Assembly (NCBI GenBank): GCA_963789265.1
Contig: CAWBKB010000001.1
Coordinates: 896,001 to 960,000 of the forward strand
Reading direction: 5' to 3'
DNA from: an uncultured delta proteobacterium
GTDB lineage: Bacteria; Desulfobacterota; Desulfomonilia; Desulfomonilales; Desulfomonilaceae
DNA: 64,000 bases
In this document: piece by piece, positions 4,738 through 15,793 of the stretch
Layout of the letters: each line of letters starts with the position of its first letter
Position numbering within the stretch: position 1 is the stretch's first letter
Made by a program: the position numbers and the translations under genes
The notes under the pieces: generated by a model
What the model was told of the DNA's origin: nothing
Database searches by the model: none
The model's input: only the letters and a program-made list of their open reading frames with translations

Positions 4738-6168
4738 ATGACCGCGGAAAGAGTTGCTTACACCGAAGAGCGTCGTCAACACTGGGATGCCGTTGCCCTA
4801 CAAATGGATCGCGGACCGGGATGGGGCCAATTCTACCATCAACGAGTGACGAAGATCTTTCAGACCGTTGTTCTCCCAGGACAGCGAATAATTGAATTTG
4901 GTTGTGCATACGCGGATCTTCTGGCGTCACTTGAAACTTCTGTGGGGGTTGGTGCAGACTTTTCCGCTGAAATGATTAAGTTCGCTTCGGCACGTCACCC
5001 CGAACTGCAATTTGTGAACGCGGACGTGCATGAATTGGATGTCAAAGAGACCTTCGATGTAATCATCTTATCTGATTTGGTGAACGATCTGTGGGATGTT
5101 CAACAAGTGTTTCAAACCGCTGCCACGCTTGCGGAACCACACACCAGGCTGATCATAAATACCTACAGCCGACTCTGGGAGCTTCCGTTGGCAATGACCG
5201 AGCGGCTACACCTGGCTCGGCCGACCTTGTATCAGAATTGGCTTACAGTAGAAGACATAACAAACCTTCTTAAGCTGACAAATTTTCAAGTCATCAGGCA
5301 TTGGAGCGAGATCCTCTGTCCCCTTAACATACCGATTCTTCAACCTTTCCTTAATAGGTTCCTGGTCAAGATGTGGCCGTTCAGACTAGGAGGTCTATCG
5401 AATTTTGTGATGGCACGCCCCGTTCCTAAGGATAACCCAGGCAAGAAAAAGCCGCTTGTTTCTGTCATTGTTCCGGCCAGGAACGAAGCCGGAAACATCG
5501 ATCGGATCTTCGAGCGGGTCCCCGAAATGGGCCAAGAGACGGAGCTTGTCTTCGTGGAAGGTCATTCGACCGACAACACGTACGAGGCAATTGAAAAGGC
5601 CATGAATTCCGGTTCGCACCGCAGGTGCAAACTGTTGAAACAGAGCGGCGCGGGAAAAGGAGATGCCGTGAGGTTAGGATTCGCTCAAGCCGAGGGCGAG
5701 ATCCTCATGATTCTCGACGCAGATCTGACCGTTCCTCCTGAAGACTTGCCCCGCTTTTATGAAGCGCTGGTCTCGGGAAGAGGTGAATTCATAAACGGGG
5801 TGAGGCTTGTCTATCCCATGGAAGACCGGGCAATGCGTTTTCCCAATTTGGTTGGCAACAAGCTCTTCAGCCTTGCTTTTCGCTGGACCCTGGGCCAACC
5901 TGTTAAAGATACTCTTTGCGGGACCAAGGTTCTGTGGAAAGCCCAGTACGAGATCATCGCCGCCAATCGGTCATACTTCGGATACTCGGACCCGTTTGGA
6001 GATTTTGATCTTATACTTGGAGCCGCGCGGTTGAACCTCCATATACTCGATTTGCCCATACGGTATCGCGAACGTCGGTACGGGGCAACGAACATCCAAC
6101 GCTGGCGACATGGATTGTTGCTGCTTAGGATGGCATTGGTGTCTGCACTACGACTTAAATTTGTGTGA
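4738..6168 (+). CDS. SAM-dependent methyltransferase domain fused to GT2 (DPM1-like) glycosyltransferase
   Basis: IIEFGCAYADL (SAM motif-like); VSVIVPARNE, GKGDAV, ILDADL (DxD), DTLCGTK. Confidence 0.85.
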   Translation: MTAERVAYTEERRQHWDAVALQMDRGPGWGQFYHQRVTKIFQTVVLPGQRIIEFGCAYADLLASLETSVGVGADFSAEMIKFASARHPELQFVNADVHELDVKETFDVIILSDLVNDLWDVQQVFQTAATLAEPHTRLIINTYSRLWELPLAMTERLHLARPTLYQNWLTVEDITNLLKLTNFQVIRHWSEILCPLNIPILQPFLNRFLVKMWPFRLGGLSNFVMARPVPKDNPGKKKPLVSVIVPARNEAGNIDRIFERVPEMGQETELVFVEGHSTDNTYEAIEKAMNSGSHRRCKLLKQSGAGKGDAVRLGFAQAEGEILMILDADLTVPPEDLPRFYEALVSGRGEFINGVRLVYPMEDRAMRFPNLVGNKLFSLAFRWTLGQPVKDTLCGTKVLWKAQYEIIAANRSYFGYSDPFGDFDLILGAARLNLHILDLPIRYRERRYGATNIQRWRHGLLLLRMALVSALRLKFV

Positions 6169-6186: not shown

Positions 6187-6973
6187 ATGATAAAAGAACT
6201 GCTTACCCATCCGCTCGCACGAGGACTGGACCTGGACGATCCCACAACAACTGAAGTGCGTCGTCGGATAATACAGACAAAAGGATATTCTGGGGCAAAT
6301 CTATCGCGACTGGTACAGGGCGGTCCTGGCGGCCTTGCCTCGGACAGATGGCCCAGTGTTGGAATTGGGTTCCGGCGCGGGATTCCTCAGGGATTTGTTT
6401 CCCGATCTGATAACGTCGGATATTCTTCGCATTAACGACTTGTCTCTTGTGCTGGACGGTACCGAGATGCCATTCGCTGCCGGTTCGCTCCGAGCAATCG
6501 TTATGATAGATGTCCTGCACCACATTTGCCGGCCCAGGCATTTCATCAGAGAAGCGGCCCGTTGTGTGAAGCCCTGTGGAAGGCTGGTGATGATTGAACC
6601 CTGGGTCACTAACTGGTCAAGGCTCGTGTATTCGCGTCTCCACCACGAACCCTTTGATCCGGAATCCGGAGAGTGGGAGTTCCGGGCGAAAGGGCCTTTG
6701 TCGGGAGCTAACGGGGCCCTCCCGTGGATAATTTTCCGGCGGGATCGGTCGCAGTTCGCGGCAGAATTTCCTCAATGGCAAGTTACGGATATCAAACCAC
6801 AAATGCCGATCAGTTATCTCCTGTCCGGAGGAATCTCGTTGAGGGGATTTGCACCGGCGAGAACTTTCAAGGCGATCAAGCGTATCGAAGGCATCTTGGA
6901 GCCGTGGATGGACAAATTGGCCATGTTCGCTCAAATGACATTGGAACGGCTCGACGTTGAAATTGACCAATAG
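6187..6973 (+). CDS. Class I SAM-dependent methyltransferase split by a +1 frameshift near 6285
   Basis: N-terminus ...RRIIQTKG continues in the next frame as ILGQIYRDWYRAVLAALPRTDGPVLELGSGAG...IDVLHH. Confidence 0.75.
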
Positions 6974-7230
6974 TCCACCGCGGAGAACGCAGAGATCGCG
7001 GAGAATTTTGGTTTCGATGCGTGTCTATGCGATGCAGCACGGCAAATTTTAGCCAGTGGCAGGGAAAGAAATTCAAGATTGACTATACGCTCCGGCGACC
7101 CACATGACGCTGAATAAGATATCTTTTTTCTCTGCGTTCTCGGTGCATCCCGCGACTCGCGGGACGGTGAATCATGATTGCCCTATGGATCGTCACGAAA
7201 TTGAAAATGGTGGGGAAGGAGAATTGCAAC

Positions 7231-10200
7231 GTGAATAATCCCGCTGAATTACAGGATCCTCGTTTCGTAGAGATCTCTGGAGGCCGGCCAGGCACCCTGC
7301 GGCCCCTTTTTTCGATTCTCGCACTTTGTCTGATTTTCCTGGCATTTCTCGCTTTCGCTTTCGCTTTGCAGCACAAGGGCTTTAATTCAGCGATGGTATA
7401 TGACGGCGCTGCTCTGATTCACAACAACGCGGCCAAGTTCGCCGAACACGATCCCGGAAAAATCATGAGGCTGGTCCCGGTAAGGCCACTGTTTATGCTG
7501 AGCCTCTACTACAATTATGTATTGGCAGGAATGGAACCGTACTATTTTCGGATCGGGAATATGCTCGTAGTCGCTGCCGGCGGCCTGGTTCTGGTGTTGC
7601 TGTGTATGATCGTTTTCGAAATTCCAGCTCTGGGGTTGCCGGGGACGAGGTTATACAAACAGGGTGTGAGTGTTTTCCTCGGTTTGCTGTTTGTCGCCCA
7701 TCCCTTACAGAACTTTGTCGTTCTGTACGAATGGCAGCGAGAAGCCAGCATGGCTTACTTTTTTTACTTTTCGACCCTTGCCATGTATCTGGCAGTGCGT
7801 TCAGGCCGCTTCCGCCATACGGTCCCGGCTTACATCCTCACGGCTATACTCTTTCTGGTCGGACTATTGAGCAAGGAGAATCTGGCCACAGTCCCCGTGG
7901 TATTCGGTTTGGCAGAAGTAACACTGTTTCGCCAAACTCTTAGGGACTTGCTCAAGAGGGCGCTGGTAGTAGCCTCGATAACGGTCCCTTCCATAATCGC
8001 TTACATATTGGCAACCGGGTATTTGCACGGGCAAGCAGGCGCACACACCTGGGGAATTGCCAGCCGTCTTTCCGATTATTACAAATTCAGCGGGCAGACC
8101 TTTCCGCAAGTGGCGCTAACCGAAGCTCGGATCATCTTTTCCTATCTTTCGATGATTATAGCTCCCTTCTTATTCCCACCGGAATTTATCAGGGCGGAAA
8201 CAATTTCTACCTCGCTGCTGCATCCTCCTGCCACTTTAGCCGCCTGCGCGGCAATAGTTGCTTTGGTCGGCATTAGCACAGTGTGGTTACGAAAAAGACC
8301 GCTGATTGCGTTCGGCATTCTCTTCTATCTTATAGTCTTAATCCCTGAATGTCTCTTGATCCCGCAATACCTGTTCTTCGGTTACAGGGCGATCCTGCCG
8401 ATGGCGGGGGTACTGCTTATAGTCGGGGCAATAACACTCCCTCTCCTCGAATGGGGCAGATCGAATTTGTCCGCGACGACCTTCAGATCCGCTTTGGCCC
8501 TGGCCTCAATTATTCCGGTCGCCTGCCTTGGCGCGGTAACATTTCCTCAAGCTAAGAGCTGGAGCGCTCTCCAGTTTTGGAAAAGCCCGGCGTCTCAGTT
8601 GCCGAACTATTCCGAGAACGTCGAAACCGTCCCTTTTCTGGACATCACTGTTAATTACATGTCCAACCTGCTTGTATCAAAGAATTATTCCGAAGCGATA
8701 AACCTCTTCGGAAAAGTCAGCCAGACTAATATCCAGCCTGAAATGTCTTCACCAAAGCCGGGGGCCACGGTTTACAAACCTGAGCAAATCAACCAGGCCG
8801 CGGCGAAGTTCGTAGAAAAATTTAAAGGAAGACCTCATAGAACTTCTGCGGCTCTACTCGCGCTCGGCGGGGCACTCACATCCACGGGGAATTTGTCCGA
8901 GGCGATGACGGCATACAGGAAAGCCATCCAGGTCGATCCTTACAATAAGAATGCCCTTATGAATCTTGCCGGCCTTTTGTCTCAGACGGGAAAACCGCAG
9001 GAGGCCGTACATCAGTACATTAAAGTCATCTGCTTGGACCCTAAATCCGTGCCGGCGCATTACGGGCTGGGTCTCGCTTTGCAAAGGGCAGGCCGCCGCG
9101 ACGACGCTATAAAGCTGTACCGCAGAGCGATAGAGATTGATCGTCGCTCGGTGATCGCCTACAACCTGCTGGGGCAAGCGCTTAAAGAATCCGGGAAGTT
9201 GCACGAGGCGATACGACAATACAGAAAAGCCATCCGGATCGATCCCAAGTCTGCTGATTCTCACCACAATCTTGGAATGGCGCTGGCCAACTCCGGCAAC
9301 GCTTCCGAAGCGATAAAAGAATATCGCAAGGCCCTTGAGATTAACCCCAAGCTACAGAGTGCACATTGTAACCTGGGCCTTGCTCTGGAATACGCGGGGA
9401 ACATTTCCGAGGCGATGAAGGAGTACACCAGAGCGATCGAGATAGACACCCACTACGGTATTGCACACAATCTTTTGGGCGGAGCGCTCCGTAAATCAGG
9501 GAAGTTGCAGGAGGCAATAGATGAGTTCACAAAGGCGGTAGAGCTTGATCCAGGTTCTCCCATTTTGCACTGCAATCTTGGCATGGCGTTGGCTAATGTC
9601 GGAAGAGGCACTTATGCGATAAAGGAATACCGAAAGGCCCTCGGCATTAATCCTCGGATGGTGGCCGCGCATATCAACCTCGGGCTGGCACTGGAGCACT
9701 CCGGTCGGCTTGCAGAGGCCATGAAGGAATACGAGAGGACCATAGCGATCTCTCCCCGTTTTGCCATAGCGTACAAGGTTCTTGGCAGCGCCCTGGACAG
9801 AGCAGGAAATCACACGCTGGCGCTGGAGTACCTTAAAGTCGCGGCCAAACTGAACCCGAGCTTGCTTAACGGTGATTATCGTGTGGCTCACGACTTGTTG
9901 AAGAATGGGAAGGTAGCTGCTGCGATAGTAAGCTTCCAAAGAATTGTGGAACAGAACCCCGACCTTGCCGCGGCCCAGGCAAATTTGGGTCTCGCTCTGC
10001 TGAGAGACGGGCGAACCAGCGAGGCTATAACGGCCCTCGAAAAGGCCGTGGCGCTCAACAAGGACAATGCTGATACTTTCTACACACTTGGGCTTGCATT
10101 TGCAAAAGTTAACAGAATCTCTGAAGCGATAGATAGTCTTAAGGCTGCGCTGGTCGTAAACCCTCGTCACACAAATGCGAAGCAATATCTCGAACATTTG

Positions 10201-10263
10201 ATGAGCCGAAACAGGCAGGCCGAAAGGCCCGTGGTCTCGCCGGGCTCACAGGCGATCAATTGA
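7231..10263 (+). CDS. TMTC-like membrane protein: GT-C-type multi-pass N-terminal domain plus about a dozen TPRs
   Basis: ~10 hydrophobic segments with RPL, LLFVAHP, LLSKE motifs; repeated AHxNLGxAL...EAIKEYRKAL TPRs. Probable GTG start 7231 after AAGGAG (ORF track 7174). Confidence 0.8.
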   Translation: MNNPAELQDPRFVEISGGRPGTLRPLFSILALCLIFLAFLAFAFALQHKGFNSAMVYDGAALIHNNAAKFAEHDPGKIMRLVPVRPLFMLSLYYNYVLAGMEPYYFRIGNMLVVAAGGLVLVLLCMIVFEIPALGLPGTRLYKQGVSVFLGLLFVAHPLQNFVVLYEWQREASMAYFFYFSTLAMYLAVRSGRFRHTVPAYILTAILFLVGLLSKENLATVPVVFGLAEVTLFRQTLRDLLKRALVVASITVPSIIAYILATGYLHGQAGAHTWGIASRLSDYYKFSGQTFPQVALTEARIIFSYLSMIIAPFLFPPEFIRAETISTSLLHPPATLAACAAIVALVGISTVWLRKRPLIAFGILFYLIVLIPECLLIPQYLFFGYRAILPMAGVLLIVGAITLPLLEWGRSNLSATTFRSALALASIIPVACLGAVTFPQAKSWSALQFWKSPASQLPNYSENVETVPFLDITVNYMSNLLVSKNYSEAINLFGKVSQTNIQPEMSSPKPGATVYKPEQINQAAAKFVEKFKGRPHRTSAALLALGGALTSTGNLSEAMTAYRKAIQVDPYNKNALMNLAGLLSQTGKPQEAVHQYIKVICLDPKSVPAHYGLGLALQRAGRRDDAIKLYRRAIEIDRRSVIAYNLLGQALKESGKLHEAIRQYRKAIRIDPKSADSHHNLGMALANSGNASEAIKEYRKALEINPKLQSAHCNLGLALEYAGNISEAMKEYTRAIEIDTHYGIAHNLLGGALRKSGKLQEAIDEFTKAVELDPGSPILHCNLGMALANVGRGTYAIKEYRKALGINPRMVAAHINLGLALEHSGRLAEAMKEYERTIAISPRFAIAYKVLGSALDRAGNHTLALEYLKVAAKLNPSLLNGDYRVAHDLLKNGKVAAAIVSFQRIVEQNPDLAAAQANLGLALLRDGRTSEAITALEKAVALNKDNADTFYTLGLAFAKVNRISEAIDSLKAALVVNPRHTNAKQYLEHLMSRNRQAERPVVSPGSQAIN

Positions 10264-10732
10264 CCGGGTCCTCGATCGGCGCTATGGCTCTGGTAGCTGT
10301 CTATAACATACAGTAATTTTGCTTGACACTTCATGTTAGCTTACCCTAATATGAATTAAGTTGAGTTTTAGGAAGATATTATGCTTGGACTGTACTCAGA
10401 TTTGGTGCGGTCGCGAAAATTAATGTTGCACATTTGCTGGTTTCGGACAGATCGTAACGACAAAATCATGGTAAAGGGAGAGTGAGTGTAATGGACACTC
10501 TCAACCGAGGCTGGTTCGGCCGGACGGTTCATTAATCGGGTCCAAAACTATCGCTTCTTTACGCTCGTTGCCTTATGTCGCAACCGAGAAGTAGCGGGAA
10601 GTGGGGTTTGGGATATCCGGGTATCGTGACAATTTGGAGTAGCCGAAATCTGAACCGAGGGTTCGGACTGGGTTCCATCTTCATTGTTTGCATCCTCCCG
10701 TTCGGGGACGAATCTTTATGGAGGGCCGCGAA

Positions 10733-12442
10733 ATGATAAGACGTGAGTATGGTTGGGGAATGGGGATTCTCTTAGCAGTGGCTTTAGTCAGTTGTTTTAG
10801 TTTGCCGCGATCTTGGGCAGCGGACCCAAAGGGGGAGGCGCTTCTTACCCAAGAAGTGGGTAAAATCGAGCGAACTCAAGGTGCAACCATGGTAAGGCGG
10901 GCCGGCGAAACCGAATTCGGCCTTCTCACCAGTGGGGACCCCGTATTCGTTCAGGACACTATTGGTACAGATCCAACTGACAAGAATGCCAAGATCTGGT
11001 GGCGACACCCTGCACCCGCGAAGATGGACGCTTCACTCGGTCCCGACTCGTTGCTCGGTTTTGTTGCCTACGGCGAGGAGGGGCCGGTTTCGTCTTTCGT
11101 CGGCGCTGTGTCGAAGGGGATGGTCCGGTTCATAAGGAAACTCCCGGCAACAGATCCTGCCTCCTCTTTCACGATCATGACCCCGACGGCTCTCGTTCAG
11201 GTTGTCCCCGCTGATCGAGCCGCTGACTACGTAGTGTCGGTGATAGACGACAATCACACCGCCGTCACCGTGATTTGGGGAGTAGTTGTGGTAAAAAACG
11301 TATCTGACCAGCTCACCCAGGAACGACAGTTAACTTCGTGCCAAATGGTTATCGTCGAAAAAGATAAAGACCCTTCCGAGGTCATGGGAGTTGGGTCTGA
11401 CACCTTAAGAGAATTAATTCAGCTTACGACGATCCCCCATACGTTGCCTACGGATGTCCCGTCTTGCGAACCGCCGGCCCAACCTGTGCCCCCGGAAGAG
11501 TACATCCCGCCTGAATTTCCCGAGGTGATTGAGGGCTATCCCGGAGAAGAATACGGGCCCCCAGGCTTTATTCCCGTCCCGGTTCCATTTCCTCCTCACA
11601 CTTGGGACACGACCGATACGACGGATACAACTATAACGGAGACTACCGGCACGCTCGACACCACTCCGACTATATTTACTCCGATAACTCTGATAACTCC
11701 GATAACTACTATTGACACCACCAACACTCTATTGACCCTTATCACGCCGCTCACATTCGACACGATAAATACGATGTACACCATCCCGACGCTGCTCACC
11801 CTTGATACGATAAACACTATTCCCACCGGCTTAACGTTCAACACTCTCTTCACCTTGCCGACTATCTATACGTTCGATACCGCCATCACGCAGATTCCCA
11901 CTGTCCTGACTCTTGACACTTTCATGACGCTCAATACTCTTGTCACGTTCGACACTTCCAACACGCAAATCCCCACACTGATCACGTTCAACACAATCTA
12001 TACGAGTATCCCAACATTCTTCACGCAAGGTCCGATCGACACGACCTATACAGGCCCGATCGGGCCAGTGACGCTAGACACCACGACAACTGTTCCCACA
12101 GTTTCTACGCTGACTACAATACCCACGGTTAGTACCGCCACGACATTATCTACTTCAATATCCACAGTCTATACAGGCTATCCCACTTTTTCCACCGGGG
12201 GAGGGACGAGTGGCACCGGCCAGCCGTTCATCCAGACCTTCCACACTTATTCAACAGGCGGAGGTGTCAGCACCATGCATACTTTCCAAACCTTTTCGAC
12301 TGGAAAAGGTGAGGGCAACACCGGCCGTCGTTACTATCGTCCCAAGTCTAAGGGAGAAAGCGGACAGAACTTGATGCAGGAATTTAACAAACAGAACCAG
12401 GAGCAACCGCAGATGCAGAAACATGAATTTCACCGACGGTAG
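10733..12442 (+). CDS. Secreted FecR-domain protein with Pro-rich linker and long Thr-x-x repeat tail
   Basis: Signal-peptide-like N-terminus; FecR-like core (GDPVFVQDTIGT...FTIMTPTA...TAVTVIWG); T-x-x periodic region ~11600-12300; RBS GGAGG. Confidence 0.75.
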   Translation: MIRREYGWGMGILLAVALVSCFSLPRSWAADPKGEALLTQEVGKIERTQGATMVRRAGETEFGLLTSGDPVFVQDTIGTDPTDKNAKIWWRHPAPAKMDASLGPDSLLGFVAYGEEGPVSSFVGAVSKGMVRFIRKLPATDPASSFTIMTPTALVQVVPADRAADYVVSVIDDNHTAVTVIWGVVVVKNVSDQLTQERQLTSCQMVIVEKDKDPSEVMGVGSDTLRELIQLTTIPHTLPTDVPSCEPPAQPVPPEEYIPPEFPEVIEGYPGEEYGPPGFIPVPVPFPPHTWDTTDTTDTTITETTGTLDTTPTIFTPITLITPITTIDTTNTLLTLITPLTFDTINTMYTIPTLLTLDTINTIPTGLTFNTLFTLPTIYTFDTAITQIPTVLTLDTFMTLNTLVTFDTSNTQIPTLITFNTIYTSIPTFFTQGPIDTTYTGPIGPVTLDTTTTVPTVSTLTTIPTVSTATTLSTSISTVYTGYPTFSTGGGTSGTGQPFIQTFHTYSTGGGVSTMHTFQTFSTGKGEGNTGRRYYRPKSKGESGQNLMQEFNKQNQEQPQMQKHEFHRR

Positions 12443-12577: not shown

Positions 12578-13729
12578 TCAGTACCGCAATATGGCCGCGA
12601 CGCGCCTGTCATCAGGCACATTTTCCGGCTCTACGGCATAAACCGATCCGCCGTTGAGCAAGGTCCGGATGGCTGCGAAATCGAGAAGATCTTCGTCGCC
12701 GGGTTCGGCTGTATCATGCAAACGCACCGAGTCGGTATCGCCGTCGAAAGATCCCCATCGTTGCACGCCGAGCGCCACAAACAACACCTCCACTCGGCCG
12801 TGATAAGCGCCCCTAACGATATCTTCGAGGTCCTTGGATGTTCTGCCAGTTCCTGCCAACCTGTTGTACAAGCCGACCGCATCCTGTTGCGCCTTCTGGA
12901 AGTAGGGCTCAATGATGCTCCAGGCTTGCTCATGTAACTGCTGGGCAGTAAGGCCTTCAGGATTCCCGGGAATGCCTTGATCCAACAAATTCCCATAAGT
13001 GTTGGCTTCTTTGTAGATAGGGAATAGATAATCGACCGCGGCCAGCACCAAGGGGGCGTGCTCGTTCCCTATCAATTCGTGTAGACCTTTGTCTACTTGC
13101 CGAAGGAACTGAAGTATGTTCTCTTTGGGATCATCCGTCCCGCCACCGTGGCCATGAAAGGCAGGGGCTCCCTTTCCGGCCCCGCCTTGGGGGAAGGCCG
13201 GCCACTGGATCTGTTTTTCAGGAGTGTCCGGCCGCAAGGCTTCTTCTAAACTTCGAGGCACTCCATTTAGATCTACGTCATCGACGCTGTAACGGGTTCC
13301 TTGCAGAAGTCTCACCTGGTTTTGACTCAGGGCCAAAATGTAAAACCTCCCATCACCGCTAAGGAGAGGAAGCATCGGCTTCAAATGGAACCGATCTGAA
13401 ACAACCACTAACTCTTCGAATCGGATTGGAAGGTTATATTGTAAGTAGCCTCCAGAGGAAAAGAACACTGCCAGTCCATCGCTCTGATGTGACCAGAACA
13501 GATTGTCCTGAATCAGTGCTTGCGCCGGCTGGAGCAGGTCCTTTGCCTGAGGAGCGCGAAGTCCGTTCCGGATCAACTTCTCCTCGGCTACCTTGAGTAA
13601 GTTCTTGAAACGGATGCGATCCTGTTGGGTCTCCGGTCCGACCCTGTGAGAAGGCAGAAAAACCGACACGCAAGGACTTTCGCGTCTCTCCATCAACGTC
13701 CTTAATTCGCTCGTGCTCAAAAGGCTCAT
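12578..13729 (-). CDS. Bacterial archaeo-eukaryotic release factor-like protein (baeRF3/7 type)
   Basis: PCVSVFLPSHR...QDRIRFKNLL, DRFHLKPML, FHGHG, GRVEVLFV, C-terminal VAAILRY. Confidence 0.8.
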   Translation of the reverse strand: MSLLSTSELRTLMERRESPCVSVFLPSHRVGPETQQDRIRFKNLLKVAEEKLIRNGLRAPQAKDLLQPAQALIQDNLFWSHQSDGLAVFFSSGGYLQYNLPIRFEELVVVSDRFHLKPMLPLLSGDGRFYILALSQNQVRLLQGTRYSVDDVDLNGVPRSLEEALRPDTPEKQIQWPAFPQGGAGKGAPAFHGHGGGTDDPKENILQFLRQVDKGLHELIGNEHAPLVLAAVDYLFPIYKEANTYGNLLDQGIPGNPEGLTAQQLHEQAWSIIEPYFQKAQQDAVGLYNRLAGTGRTSKDLEDIVRGAYHGRVEVLFVALGVQRWGSFDGDTDSVRLHDTAEPGDEDLLDFAAIRTLLNGGSVYAVEPENVPDDRRVAAILRY

Positions 13730-13841
13730 GCTTCATGCCCCTTTCTTGGATGGAAGACCAGTCAATTCCAATTGCCCGAGTTGCGCCATCTGTGGCTCTC
13801 GTGTGGGCACCTGTGGGCTCCTAATGAAGGCACGTCCCAGA

Positions 13842-14114
13842 CTATGAGCCCGTACCTTCAATCGAGCCCTTGACCGTTTCCCCCGCGGCTTCTCCCTCAG
13901 GACACGAGGAGCACAATTCACCTTCGGGGCCCGGTCGCACCAGACCCCGCCGCACCGCCTCGCGGTTCGCTATCAAAACGCTCATTTCCTCGTCATATTT
14001 TGCTTTCTGTTCCGGACCGGCCTCTTCCATGGCAGCTTCAAATTGAGCTATTTGAGCGTCACACTGCTCTACCACGGATTCCACTCTACGTTCGTATTCT
14101 CCTTCGTTTTCCAA
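13842..14114 (-). CDS. Small acidic coiled-coil hypothetical protein
   Basis: TTG start after AAAGGGGG; YERRVESVVEQCDAQIAQFEA; sigma70-like promoter upstream. Confidence 0.5.
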   Translation of the reverse strand: MENEGEYERRVESVVEQCDAQIAQFEAAMEEAGPEQKAKYDEEMSVLIANREAVRRGLVRPGPEGELCSSCPEGEAAGETVKGSIEGTGS

Positions 14115-14232
14115 TTTAAGTTCCCCCTTTGCAGTTTCACAAATCGAGCGATTTCGATGTGTAACAATTCCCGCGTCATCTTTGACGCCACCTCTAGTCT
14201 CAATGCCAATGGACAACACCACTACTTCTTAT

Positions 14233-14261
14233 AATTTAGCCTTGGACAAGGTTCATGTCAA
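14233..14261 (-). promoter_or_regulatory. Sigma70-like promoter
   Basis: TTGACA-17 nt-TAAATT on the minus strand. Confidence 0.5.
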
Positions 14262-14400
14262 AAACATGTAACAATTAACCGCGGAGAACGCAGAAACCGC
14301 AAAGAATTCGGTATTCTTCGGCACGTCTGTGCGATGCAGCATGACGAGTCGCGGTCTCTGGCGCTAAGTCTGTCCGCCGCCATTTAGAGAGGCGGGCTGA

Positions 14401-14638
14401 TACCGATTCGCTTTCAAACAAGTGACACAGTGTTTTTAGTGGGGCAGGCATCTTGCCTGTCGCCATGCCCTCGTACGCGGGCATCAATGGTAGGGGCAGA
14501 CCTATGTGTCTGCCCTGAGCGGACACGCGGGTCCGCCCCTACATGCCCGGATCGAAGTCCGGGGTGACGCATGGCAGGCAGGACGCCTGCCCCACCATGT
14601 CCTCGCGGGGATTGTCACTTGTTTGATGGCGCACTGGG
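14401..14638. mobile_element. MITE-like element carrying REP-like hairpins
   Basis: Imperfect terminal inverted repeats (TCAAACAAGTGAC / GTCACTTGTTTGA). Internal GTAGGGGCAGACC...GTCCGCCCCTAC unit recurs inverted at ~54880-54960. Confidence 0.55.
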
Positions 14639-14806
14639 CTGAGAAGGCTTTACCTTGTCAATCGAGGTACTGCCTGGATTAGTCGGTTAATCGTCGTTCA
14701 CTAGAAACGCAGCATTCTTGATAGAGTTTAAGTGACCCCTGTCTAAACAGGGGTCGAGCAACATTCTGTCACGCCGGCCTCGACATGGCCAAGCTTCTCC
14801 TCTGAC

Positions 14807-15793
14807 TTATTGGCCTTCAAACAGACGGCGGGGATTGTCTTCAATGATGGTTTTGATCTGATCGTCGCTTGCCCCTCCTTTTTTCAGGGCAGGGATGATG
14901 TTATTGAACAAGTGAGTGGGGTGCCAATTGGCGACAAATTGTAACGCAGGCTCCGGCAACTGAGGCGGCCGGCCCAACCACGTGCAAATCGTGTCATGAG
15001 AAATCAGGAGCCGGTCGGTATAACCCTTGGCAATCAGGTCGAGCATAACGGCATACCGATCTGCATCTCTGGGGCAGCCCACGAGGACCTCCAGGCCCAT
15101 GCGGTCCCAGGAAACGTACACTCCCTGATCGAGCGCCCTGACTTGATATGCGACATCAAGGTTGTCGCTCATGTGACCAACCTGGATGCGTTTGGGGTTC
15201 GCTCCGGCCGCGATGAGAAACTCTGCCTGCTCCGGCCCCATAGTTCCTTCCTGGGTATGGGTGATGATAGGAACGTTTGTTTCTTTCTGGACCCGAGCAG
15301 CCGCGCCCAGCATTAGCTTCTCATAATCGGTGATGCATCCCTTGCTGGTGCCCACTTTGATGACGCCGGCTTTGATCCCGGACCCCCGAATGCCCACCGT
15401 TACCTCCTTCATGAAAAGTTCGTAAATCTCATCTCTCACATCTCCCAACATGGAGCGGAATTTCCAGTACGCAGCAGCTCCTTCCCCTTCGAAGTAATAC
15501 CCGGTGGAACAGACGATGTTCACTTCGGATTTTTCCGAGATTTCTTTCAGCACGTCAACGTTTCTGCCGCAGTCGGCGGGGGTCGCGTCAACGTAAGTCC
15601 CCAGACCAAGACCCTTGAGTTGTTGGAGAAGCGCGACACCTGTCTCGACTATGGCCAGATGATTAAAGGGAGCCATAGTCTGGTCACCTTCCCAGCCCGG
15701 GTACCCAAACACCATGTGTTCGTGAACCAAGGTCACACCCAACTCCTCGGGAGAGATCCGCCCCAGGACGGTATTGATTTTGGCTGCTCCCAT
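14807..15793 (-). CDS. Phosphotriesterase-family (amidohydrolase superfamily) protein
   Basis: LGVTLVHEH, VCSTGYY, GVIKVG, ITHT, GHM, LISHD metal-ligand motifs. Confidence 0.9.
   Translation of the reverse strand: MGAAKINTVLGRISPEELGVTLVHEHMVFGYPGWEGDQTMAPFNHLAIVETGVALLQQLKGLGLGTYVDATPADCGRNVDVLKEISEKSEVNIVCSTGYYFEGEGAAAYWKFRSMLGDVRDEIYELFMKEVTVGIRGSGIKAGVIKVGTSKGCITDYEKLMLGAAARVQKETNVPIITHTQEGTMGPEQAEFLIAAGANPKRIQVGHMSDNLDVAYQVRALDQGVYVSWDRMGLEVLVGCPRDADRYAVMLDLIAKGYTDRLLISHDTICTWLGRPPQLPEPALQFVANWHPTHLFNNIIPALKKGGASDDQIKTIIEDNPRRLFEGQ

Follow-up and report, generated by a model that had tools for sequence, protein, structure and literature searches.

A threonine-periodic tail beside a GT-C/TPR gene in Desulfomonilaceae: a candidate acceptor and its proposed glycosyltransferase

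Why does a bacterial protein carry threonine mostly at every third residue of a long tail, and what is this regularity kept for? The question is raised by a gene of an uncultured delta proteobacterium of the family Desulfomonilaceae. It lies in a stretch of 64,000 nt of contig CAWBKB010000001.1 (assembly GCA_963789265.1), herein called the window, and all coordinates are window positions on the forward strand unless noted otherwise. The gene (Thr-tail gene, protein P0001) occupies an open reading frame (ORF) at 10688-12442 and, coding from the ATG at 10733, yields a protein of 569 amino acids (aa). Directly upstream lies a gene whose product combines a membrane domain of the GT-C glycosyltransferase type with tetratricopeptide repeats (TPRs), and the two products look like an enzyme-substrate pair. 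With a probability of roughly 0.55, we favor the reading that the tail is an extended stalk O-glycosylated on its periodic Thr residues by this adjacent enzyme; the tail is regarded as the probable acceptor because of the gene linkage.

The threonine lattice of the tail

The tail (aa 290-528, 11600..12316) follows a Pro/Glu-rich linker (aa 246-288, 11468..11596), which was delimited from the sequence and an alignment of homologues (A1). It is mostly built of triads of Thr, a hydrophobic residue, and a third residue, with D, N, or P at every sixth position, and its 239 residues comprise 84 Thr, 23 I, 20 L, 15 F, 8 V, and 7 Y. Among the 83 successive Thr-Thr gaps, 50 measure three residues, whereas 20,000 shuffles gave a mean of 12.3 (standard deviation of 3.2) and never more than 26. 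No in-register run is longer than 21 Thr (aa 326-386); here the 20,000 shuffles gave a mean of 4.8 and at most 14. A first-pass annotation of the window had described Thr at every third residue over more than 45 triads in a secreted protein; the quoted sequence is exactly as given, and its periodicity lies beyond all shuffles. The triads are present, but they do not share one register: they fall into blocks of 6, 8, 21, 8, 4, and 10 Thr with one-residue slips in between (e.g., TQIP and TSIP). Within the 50 clean triads, position 2 is mostly L, F, I, or V, and position 3 alternates between D/N/S/P and hydrophobic residues. D, N, or P recurs at a lag of six 14 times (mean of 6.4), which was reached in 0 of 2000 shuffles that kept the Thr lattice. 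A looser period of 12 residues, noted in the same annotation, is visible as [IL]P-T at aa 350, 362, 374, and 386, and later at 411 and 424.

At the level of DNA, no recent tandem repeat underlies this pattern, as had been proposed: the only arrays that Tandem Repeats Finder reports are two very short ones, with 2-3 copies of a 9-bp unit, and the Thr residues draw on a mixture of all four codons (ACT 26, ACG 26, ACC 19, and ACA 13). A codon-level comparison was made with five relatives from the same genus as the window. L038, at an overall identity of 64%, retains 72 of the 77 aligned Thr, and 56 of these have switched codon; L005 retains 79 of 85, with a switched codon at 31. These are upper estimates because alignments of low complexity favor Thr-Thr pairing. 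The direction is clear and points to purifying selection on the Thr of the tail at the protein level. The earlier claim that the periodicity is upheld at this level is borne out, both by the Thr kept through codon change and by the spacing of three found across genera.

The codon changes also bear on the explanation that the tail frame is not translated at all and is a mis-called ORF or an assembly artefact, which is highly improbable. Its support comes from a frameshift just before the tail in the assembly of the closest relative (L005, near 8783, before the linker) and from an 85-aa, Val-rich antisense ORF that overlaps the tail (11596-11853, reverse strand). The antisense ORF is, however, the mirror of the ACN codons for Thr and not a gene candidate, and the tail of L005 continues intact in the shifted frame as a sequencing error would give, which suggests such an error and not decay. 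Furthermore, this reading frame is conserved, and open, in over 20 genomes, the change of codon at 56 of the 72 Thr kept relative to L038 is synonymous, and a conserved Q/R-rich end follows beyond the tail. This Gln/Lys/Arg-rich C-terminal end (aa 529-569, with the stop codon 12317..12442) contains a helix predicted at low confidence by AlphaFold2 (AF2) for aa 544-568, and a Q- or R-rich end is common to the Thr-tail orthologues. The start at ATG 10733 agrees with the MIRREYGWG of the homologues and is preceded by GGAGG 8 nt before it.

The N-terminal domain of the protein (N-domain) was found in 53 of 70 genomes of the order, and 40 loci were fetched. The tails attached to it vary: they are Thr-rich, Cys-rich with CXCXC repeats (Pfam CXCXC in P0026 and P0037), or Gly-rich (P0040 and P0049). 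In-register Thr runs reach 30 in L038 from the genus of the window (g1), 43 in L026 and L027, 51 in L028 and L034, and 56 in L033, with shuffle maxima of at most 13. The spacers are hydrophobic residues and Asp in g1, hydrophobic residues and Pro in g15, Lys/Phe/Val with Pro in g26, and Arg/Phe/Pro in g23 and g24, and the unit in g20 is (T-R-F-T-I-P)n. Homologues lacking the periodicity were looked for: period three is kept in close and in several distant orthologues, but the clades g11 and g16 show (T-G)n and x-P-T-x units, meaning periods of 2 and 4, and paralogues carry Cys-rich tails. In L040, from the window's own genus, the tail is mostly of the T-x-T type. Since the spacing of three is kept across genera while the spacers turn over, the conserved feature is Thr at a short fixed spacing, most often three, with spacer residues that change completely. 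The tail in the window is the Pro-poor, hydrophobic/acidic variant. A homologue search with the tail alone matched only P0002 and P0003, both members of the same family, and the Protein Atlas gave no usable match for the tail. The Cys-rich tails of the paralogues (P0008-P0016, L007-L019, and L042-L065), which share the same N-domain, are long (CPCP and CXCXC motifs; 8-14% Cys) and end in stretches that are Gly-rich and basic stretches.

Upstream enzyme, FecR-like domain, and neighboring genes

The gene directly upstream (7174-10263) encodes 1029 aa. Its membrane domain (aa 1-530, 7174..8763) has about 11 hydrophobic helices and is followed by a C-terminal TPR domain of about 10 repeats (8764..10263; Pfam TPR_11 1.4e-82, TPR_1 6.6e-80, and others), which by analogy to the topology of TMTC and TfpW and from the helix count should face the periplasm. 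AF2 modeled aa 1-530 from 41 sequences with a predicted local distance difference test score (pLDDT) of 91.8 and a predicted template modeling score of 0.89. The top Foldseek matches of this model are Pmt4 (9i5k_A, E 2.8e-4), AglB, ArnT, STT3, PglB, and Pmt1-Pmt2. In the structural comparison by VIA, Z amounts to 17-21 over 320-345 residues for AglB, STT3, ALG12, ArnT, Pmt4, Pmt1-2, and PglB, with AglB 3waj at 21.0 (332 residues, 4.9 Å), yeast STT3 at 20.8, ALG12 at 20.0, ArnT 5f15 at 19.4, Pmt4 9i5k_A at 19.2, and Pmt1-Pmt2 at 18.9; Z is at least 8 for 55 chains, and helical membrane proteins with Z under about 13 may share a common arrangement only. All 50 VIA rows are what we take to be GT-C-type membrane proteins, namely transferases of lipid-linked sugars and PIGU, a subunit of the GPI transamidase. 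Because Z lies well above about 13 and the list of matches is uniform, the membrane domain is assigned to the GT-C fold on the basis of its model.

Four residues of the GT-C domain (D77, R104, K234, and R405) are invariant among the 41 sequences of its alignment (A2). D77 stands right behind the first hydrophobic helix (aa 48-69); K234-E235-N-L-A-T comes after helix five. Pfam has no match on the membrane half (aa 1-519), and a profile of A2 against solved structures matched TPR proteins only, with nothing on the membrane domain. The Protein Atlas places the domain at 0.96 with clusters of TMTC_DUF1736 and PMT_2, which serve as leads only. In total, 113 GT-C/TPR homologues were found; JGI labels many of them protein O-mannosyl-transferase, and TPR families are the only Pfam domains listed for them. 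In the related assemblies L039, L041, and L043, several GT-C/TPR genes are split into pieces, similar to the frameshifted Thr-tail gene of L005.

Linkage between enzyme and tail was examined by searching for a homologue of the GT-C domain around each FecR-like copy of the window and of the 40 fetched loci (tblastn, E≤1e-8). Among the 21 Thr-tail loci examined, two could not be tested because the gene lies less than 1 kb from the contig start (L040 and L045). A GT-C/TPR gene stands directly upstream on the same strand in 17 of the 19 testable loci, at 43-78% identity, and in 18 of 20 when L005 from an earlier fetch is added, at 43-86% identity of the membrane domain. The 18 linked loci are spread over eight genera (g1, g11, g15, g16, g17, g20, g24, and g26). 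The GT-C match ends about 2 kb before the Thr-tail gene in single-copy loci, which leaves room for the TPR half, and lies farther off in tandem loci. Such tandem Thr-tail genes behind a single GT-C/TPR gene occur in L037 (two copies), L041 (three), and L045 (two), and their tails have diverged.

By comparison, none of the 20 Cys-tail copies has a GT-C/TPR gene upstream on the same strand, 16 of them being fully testable and four having just 0.5-3.3 kb of upstream sequence. At the Cys-tail locus L055, a 35%-identical GT-C homologue is found 7.5 kb off on the opposite strand. Thr-tail and Cys-tail copies coexist in three genomes (G057, G069, and G039), so that the two tail types can be contrasted inside one genome as a control. 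Genomes that possess the GT-C/TPR family hold 1-7 copies of it. At E≤1e-30, the family is absent from g2 (0/8 genomes), g3 (0/2), g4 (0/14), and g19 (0/3); g2 and g4 nonetheless hold the FecR-like domain in 8/8 and 7/14 genomes, and the copies fetched from them are Cys-tailed.

A tree of 43 N-domains, which omits L027, L047, the 549-aa copy of L041, and the 273-aa copy of L043 as truncated or devoid of the anchor motif, recovers the Thr-tail copies as three well-supported clades and one lone row, L044, with the backbone unresolved. On this tree, 2-3 changes of tail label are required, and the N-domains of the linked clades are just about 40-50% identical to each other. As far as these sequences indicate, the linkage represents a long-term retention of the pair at this level of N-domain identity while other neighbors come and go.

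The N-terminus of the Thr-tail protein resembles a signal peptide (aa 1-29, ...SWA|ADP, 10733..10819); the homologues show the same pattern, and AF2 predicts a helix for aa 2-29. From this segment alone, the protein would be exported. A lipoprotein reading of the LVSC within the segment was dropped because distant homologues without the Cys keep the cleavage-like ...WA site. The following β domain (aa 40-237, 10850..11443) had been called a FecR domain in the first-pass annotation. The family model does not carry this name: Pfam returns 0 families at E≤10 for the whole protein or its N-terminal half, NCBIfam returns only Lsa33 at E 0.21, a genome-wide search with PF04773 (FecR) matched another locus only, and sequence searches of solved structures with the protein or A1 gave rows at chance level. 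The fold, in contrast, does. AF2 (15 sequences) models aa 40-235 as all-β with a pLDDT of 80-90, and Foldseek places the C-terminal signaling domain of PupR (6ovk_R, E 4.4e-7) and the anti-sigma factor BDI_1681 (4m0n) on top. VIA gives Z 16.8 for 6ovk_R (139 residues, 2.4 Å) and 15.2 for 4m0n, followed by unrelated rows with Z≤6.6. With the N-domain as the query, an exhaustive phmmer search of 1.84 billion proteins gave 103 representatives at E≤1e-3. Pfam FecR was run on 56 of these, of which 13 pass the 24-bit cut-off and 18 reach E≤1e-3, adding transitive homology. The N-domain is fairly described as a divergent member of the FecR-like fold, but the family model does not place it in the FecR family. 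Just after it stands a conserved TTIPxTLPxxVPSC motif, and C203 and C245 are invariant in A1. In other proteins, the FecR-like domain is joined to multihaem cytochrome c motifs (P0102) or to ankyrin repeats (P0035).

Farther upstream lie two genes that may belong to the same pathway. The first (4738..6168) encodes a fusion of a methyltransferase (aa 46-187, several Pfam methyltransferase families) and a GT2 domain (aa 242-371, Pfam Glycos_transf_2 8.9e-23), and the second (6335..6973) encodes a small methyltransferase (Pfam Methyltransf_11 1.5e-8). The best NCBIfam models on the GT2 domain all stay far under their cut-offs: AglJ with 98.8 bits of 325, the ArnC-type PRK10714 with 44.9 of 529, and PgfS with 36.7 of 500, besides a dolichyl-phosphate hexose transferase. 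As a candidate polyprenyl-phosphate sugar synthase, the fusion would provide a lipid-linked donor. ORF clustering of 18 Thr-tail loci recovers the GT-C/TPR gene in 17, the methyltransferase in eight, and the polytopic membrane protein family P0231 in seven. Members of P0231 (about 480-680 aa; L028 11114-12553, forward strand) have no Pfam or NCBIfam match, lie directly downstream of the Thr-tail gene in L028, L029, L031, L033, L036, L041, and L043 (7/18 loci), and are absent from the locus in the window; they could be a second transferase of lipid-linked sugars.

The 469-nt gap before the Thr-tail gene contains a weak promoter-like site (TTGACA-18-TAATAT, 10323..10352). Such sites are not above chance in the region (6 vs 6.6 expected from shuffles), and the promoter and terminator scan gave counts no higher than shuffles. 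On the reverse strand, a gene of the bacterial archaeo-eukaryotic release factor-like (baeRF) families (12578-13729) runs toward the Thr-tail gene, and L005 alone has it too; NCBIfam ranks a family of ribosome hibernation factors first for it, with a score under the cut-off. Elsewhere in the window's own genome, locus L066 (G000:C7:40000-59900) shows five GT-C/TPR-like ORFs of 544-736 aa, one of them a 35%-identical paralogue of the enzyme described here. They surround a 197-aa ORF (9739-10332, reverse strand) whose N-terminus resembles type IV prepilins and whose end is rich in S/T, and the genes may form a cluster for pilin glycosylation in the manner of TfpW, considered below.

Readings of the pair

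If the tail is indeed the acceptor, the genes of the locus would act in sequence. The GT2 domain of the upstream fusion would load a sugar onto undecaprenyl phosphate, the methyltransferases may modify this sugar, and the lipid-linked product would be flipped to the periplasmic face. There, the TPR domain would hold the extended, repetitive tail, and the GT-C domain would transfer the sugar to Thr hydroxyls with the invariant Asp that follows membrane helix one. The FecR-like domain would then be carried by a stalk or spacer that is stiff and densely glycosylated. The heavily O-glycosylated stalk suggested in the first-pass annotation has become likelier through the GT-C and TPR gene upstream, which is linked to Thr-tail copies only, while the modification itself stays a conditional part of the claim. 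A more specific and distinctly tentative version is that of a register-reading system. Herein, the TPR superhelix would thread the tail and offer every third residue to the GT-C site. A periodic glycopolymer specified by a gene would result, the bacterial equivalent of antifreeze glycoproteins or mucin rods, and all its sugars would line one face of a polyproline-II-like chain. The remaining faces would be free to be hydrophobic, as in the window's genus, or basic, as in other genera, and the spacing of three, conserved over at least six genera, would be the footprint of the enzyme's step length.

A tail that is structural, meaning a self-associating, β-rich solenoid, cross-β fiber, or trimeric rod built on the packing of Thr ladders and hydrophobic residues, with no need of glycosylation, appears improbable. 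The composition would suit it, as the tail is rich in β-formers (T, I, L, F, V, and Y) with a turn-like D/N/P at every sixth position, and some relatives show an alternation of the TFTFT type. However, in the full-length AF2 model (15-sequence alignment) the tail has a pLDDT of about 21-25, and aa 246-540 contain no strand. In orthologues, every third or sixth residue is Pro along stretches of 40-56 triads, a spacing ill-suited to the regular hydrogen bonding of a sheet. Register slips of one residue are frequent, the length changes too, and the strict linkage to a glycosyltransferase would be left unexplained. Hence, the solenoid put forward as an option in the first-pass annotation finds no support in model or orthologues. 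A left-handed β-helix as the cause of the six-residue period was likewise rejected because the positions, compared by eye, misfit the hexapeptide pattern [LIV]-G-x-x-[STAV]-x and AF2 shows no such fold. The model suggests an extended chain without a fixed fold, which fits the Pro at position 3 in most orthologues. Such a chain could also be left bare, and it is an unlikely but serious possibility that the tail is an unmodified spacer of low complexity. The enzyme would then glycosylate a lipid, a polysaccharide, or another protein, with the FecR-like protein serving it as a partner, regulator, or scaffold. The best fold matches indeed include GT-C enzymes whose acceptors are not proteins (ArnT with Z 19.4; AftD, Emb, and ALG enzymes), FecR-type domains are known as periplasmic modules for signaling or partner binding (by the title of the PupR structure), the tails of the family are very plastic (Thr-, Cys-, or Gly-rich), and other paralogues of the enzyme have no Thr-rich neighbor. 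Yet the linkage tracks the type of tail and not the FecR-like domain (0/20 for Cys-tail paralogues), Thr is kept at 72 of 77 positions against 64% overall identity, and the spacing outlasts a complete change in spacer chemistry, which a mere spacer would not need.

Several points weigh against a glycosylated tail. Two of the 20 testable loci break the linkage, although what stands in place of the enzyme counts in favor of the glycosylation reading: L033 (g23) has GT4 and GT2 glycosyltransferase genes directly upstream instead, and L047 (g11) has a primase/D5-like gene (12817-15054, forward strand; PriCT_1, D5_N, and DUF5906), which is typical of inserted elements. (A serpin gene lies downstream of the Thr-tail copy in L047.) The linkage may descend from one or a few ancestral arrangements, and given a possible single origin of the Thr-tail clades, the 18 loci therefore do not count as 18 independent events. 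Gene linkage is furthermore a functional tie that does not imply the direction from enzyme to substrate. At 20 other loci with GT-C/TPR paralogues, no convincing Thr-rich neighbor was found: only 2 of 620 ORFs of at least 100 aa were flagged by at least 15 Thr per 60-aa window, both short and doubtful. The idea that all GT-C/TPR paralogues adjoin Thr-rich proteins was rejected on these counts, and a GT-C/TPR gene beside a Thr-rich substrate is therefore no general rule of the family. The GT2-methyltransferase gene, the proposed source of the donor, occurs in only 9 of 18 Thr-tail loci, and no curated model of a polyprenyl-phosphate sugar synthase scores above its cut-off on it. The enzyme gene stayed unmatched in genome-wide searches at E≤10 with PMT_2 (PF13231) and TMTC_DUF1736 (PF08409). 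GT-C enzymes also act on lipids and polysaccharides (ArnT and Emb). The hydrophobic spacers in the window's genus are also unusual among known O-glycosylated linkers.

The locus is nevertheless a testable enzyme-substrate candidate with an unusually simple, regular acceptor. Bacterial GT-C and TPR proteins are numerous, with 113 relatives in one search and up to 7 copies per genome, and almost no known substrates were found in the literature for those of TMTC-like architecture. No paper on the Thr-tail protein family was found either, subscription journals lying outside the coverage of the search. If the glycosylation reading is true, the pair would be a model for TPR-based acceptor selection in GT-C enzymes, with a bearing on the human TMTC enzymes, and bacteria would offer a natural case of an O-glycoprotein with strict periodicity. 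The combination of Thr in every third position with an adjoining GT-C/TPR gene would further provide a sequence rule for finding more such pairs. Should the tail be unglycosylated, the strict Thr spacing amid changing spacers would itself need a structural explanation.

Comparison with known systems

The anti-sigma regulators FecR and PupR share with the Thr-tail protein the modeled fold of aa 72-233 (Z 16.8 and 15.2) with a root mean square deviation of 2.4-2.5 Å. They differ in that the Thr-tail protein has no cytoplasmic anti-sigma domain and no membrane helix beyond the signal peptide; no STN or DUF4974 domain was detected in it, and Pfam FecR stays below detection.

Fish antifreeze glycoproteins, (Ala-Ala-Thr)n, are the closest parallel to the lattice itself, with Thr at every third residue over tens of repeats. 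In these proteins, each Thr is glycosylated and the chain is flexible or polyproline-II-like. The comparison, which had been drawn in the first-pass annotation, holds for the spacing and for nothing beyond it. The spacers are L/F/I/V and D/N/S/P here (Pro or Arg in other genera) instead of small Ala/Pro, the tail is one domain of a larger protein and would be glycosylated only by the reading favored above, and the host is an anaerobic member of the Desulfomonilaceae, with nothing that points to an ice-related role.

A parallel to the proposed two-step logic is found in streptococci, where GtrB (GT-A) and PgtC2 (GT-C) glucosylate Ser/Thr-rich disordered regions (PMC12041528). In this system, as in PgfS/PgfM1, the sugar is first attached to undecaprenyl phosphate by a GT-A/GT2 enzyme and then passed by a GT-C enzyme to Ser/Thr-rich disordered regions outside the cytoplasm; PgfS is also among the sub-threshold NCBIfam matches of the GT2 domain in the window. 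The streptococcal system is a general Gram-positive one with many substrates and irregular poly-Ser/Thr, and its GT-C is of the YfhO type without TPRs, whereas the locus in the window has one linked substrate candidate with a strict spacing of three.

The PMT protein O-mannosyltransferases (Pmt4 and Pmt1-Pmt2), which together with the TMTC enzymes form the eukaryotic parallel, are close to the GT-C domain by fold, with 9i5k_A as the top Foldseek match and VIA Z of 19.2 and 18.9. They act on Ser/Thr-rich, unfolded stretches of exported proteins. Unlike them, the enzyme in the window has TPRs in place of a MIR domain, shows no match to Pfam PMT_2, and is only 11-12% identical in sequence. Its layout, in which TPRs follow a GT-C domain with about 11 helices and an invariant Asp lies in the first outer loop, is that of the eukaryotic O-mannosyltransferases TMTC1-4 (PMC7801869). 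The seven TMTC motifs M1-M7 are given there as DD, SHKSYRP, RxD, KE(T/Q)xxT, DW, PxxP, and ERxxY (Table 4). Compared by eye with A2, M4 is matched (KENLAT), M2 is reduced to RP (R104-P105), M7 to its Arg (R405, YRAILP), and M1 to its first Asp (YDG, with Gly in place of the second Asp), while M3, M5 (DW), and M6 were not identified. Because the remaining motifs were not identified and Pfam TMTC_DUF1736, like PMT_2, gives no score, the enzyme is termed TMTC-like in architecture, not a member of the TMTC family. The substrates also differ, as those of TMTCs are folded cadherin domains, and the donor here would be linked to undecaprenyl.

In gene arrangement, the nearest counterpart is TfpW of the group IV pili of Pseudomonas aeruginosa, a GT-C enzyme with 11 membrane helices and a periplasmic TPR domain that is encoded beside its substrate gene pilA and O-glycosylates PilA (bioRxiv 10.1101/2020.04.19.049825). 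Both systems place the gene of a GT-C and TPR enzyme next to that of its acceptor, here a candidate acceptor at 18 of 20 loci. TfpW modifies a folded pilin at few sites with D-arabinofuranose oligomers, whereas the acceptor here would be a 240-residue periodic Thr tail on a FecR-like protein, and the gene order is reversed, with the enzyme upstream. Hence, the parts are of known kinds: the FecR-like fold, GT-C enzymes with TPRs, and O-glycosylated Ser/Thr-rich regions. What is new is the strict three-residue Thr lattice over tens of repeats, kept across genera with changing spacers, and the tie of this lattice to a dedicated, TMTC-like bacterial enzyme.

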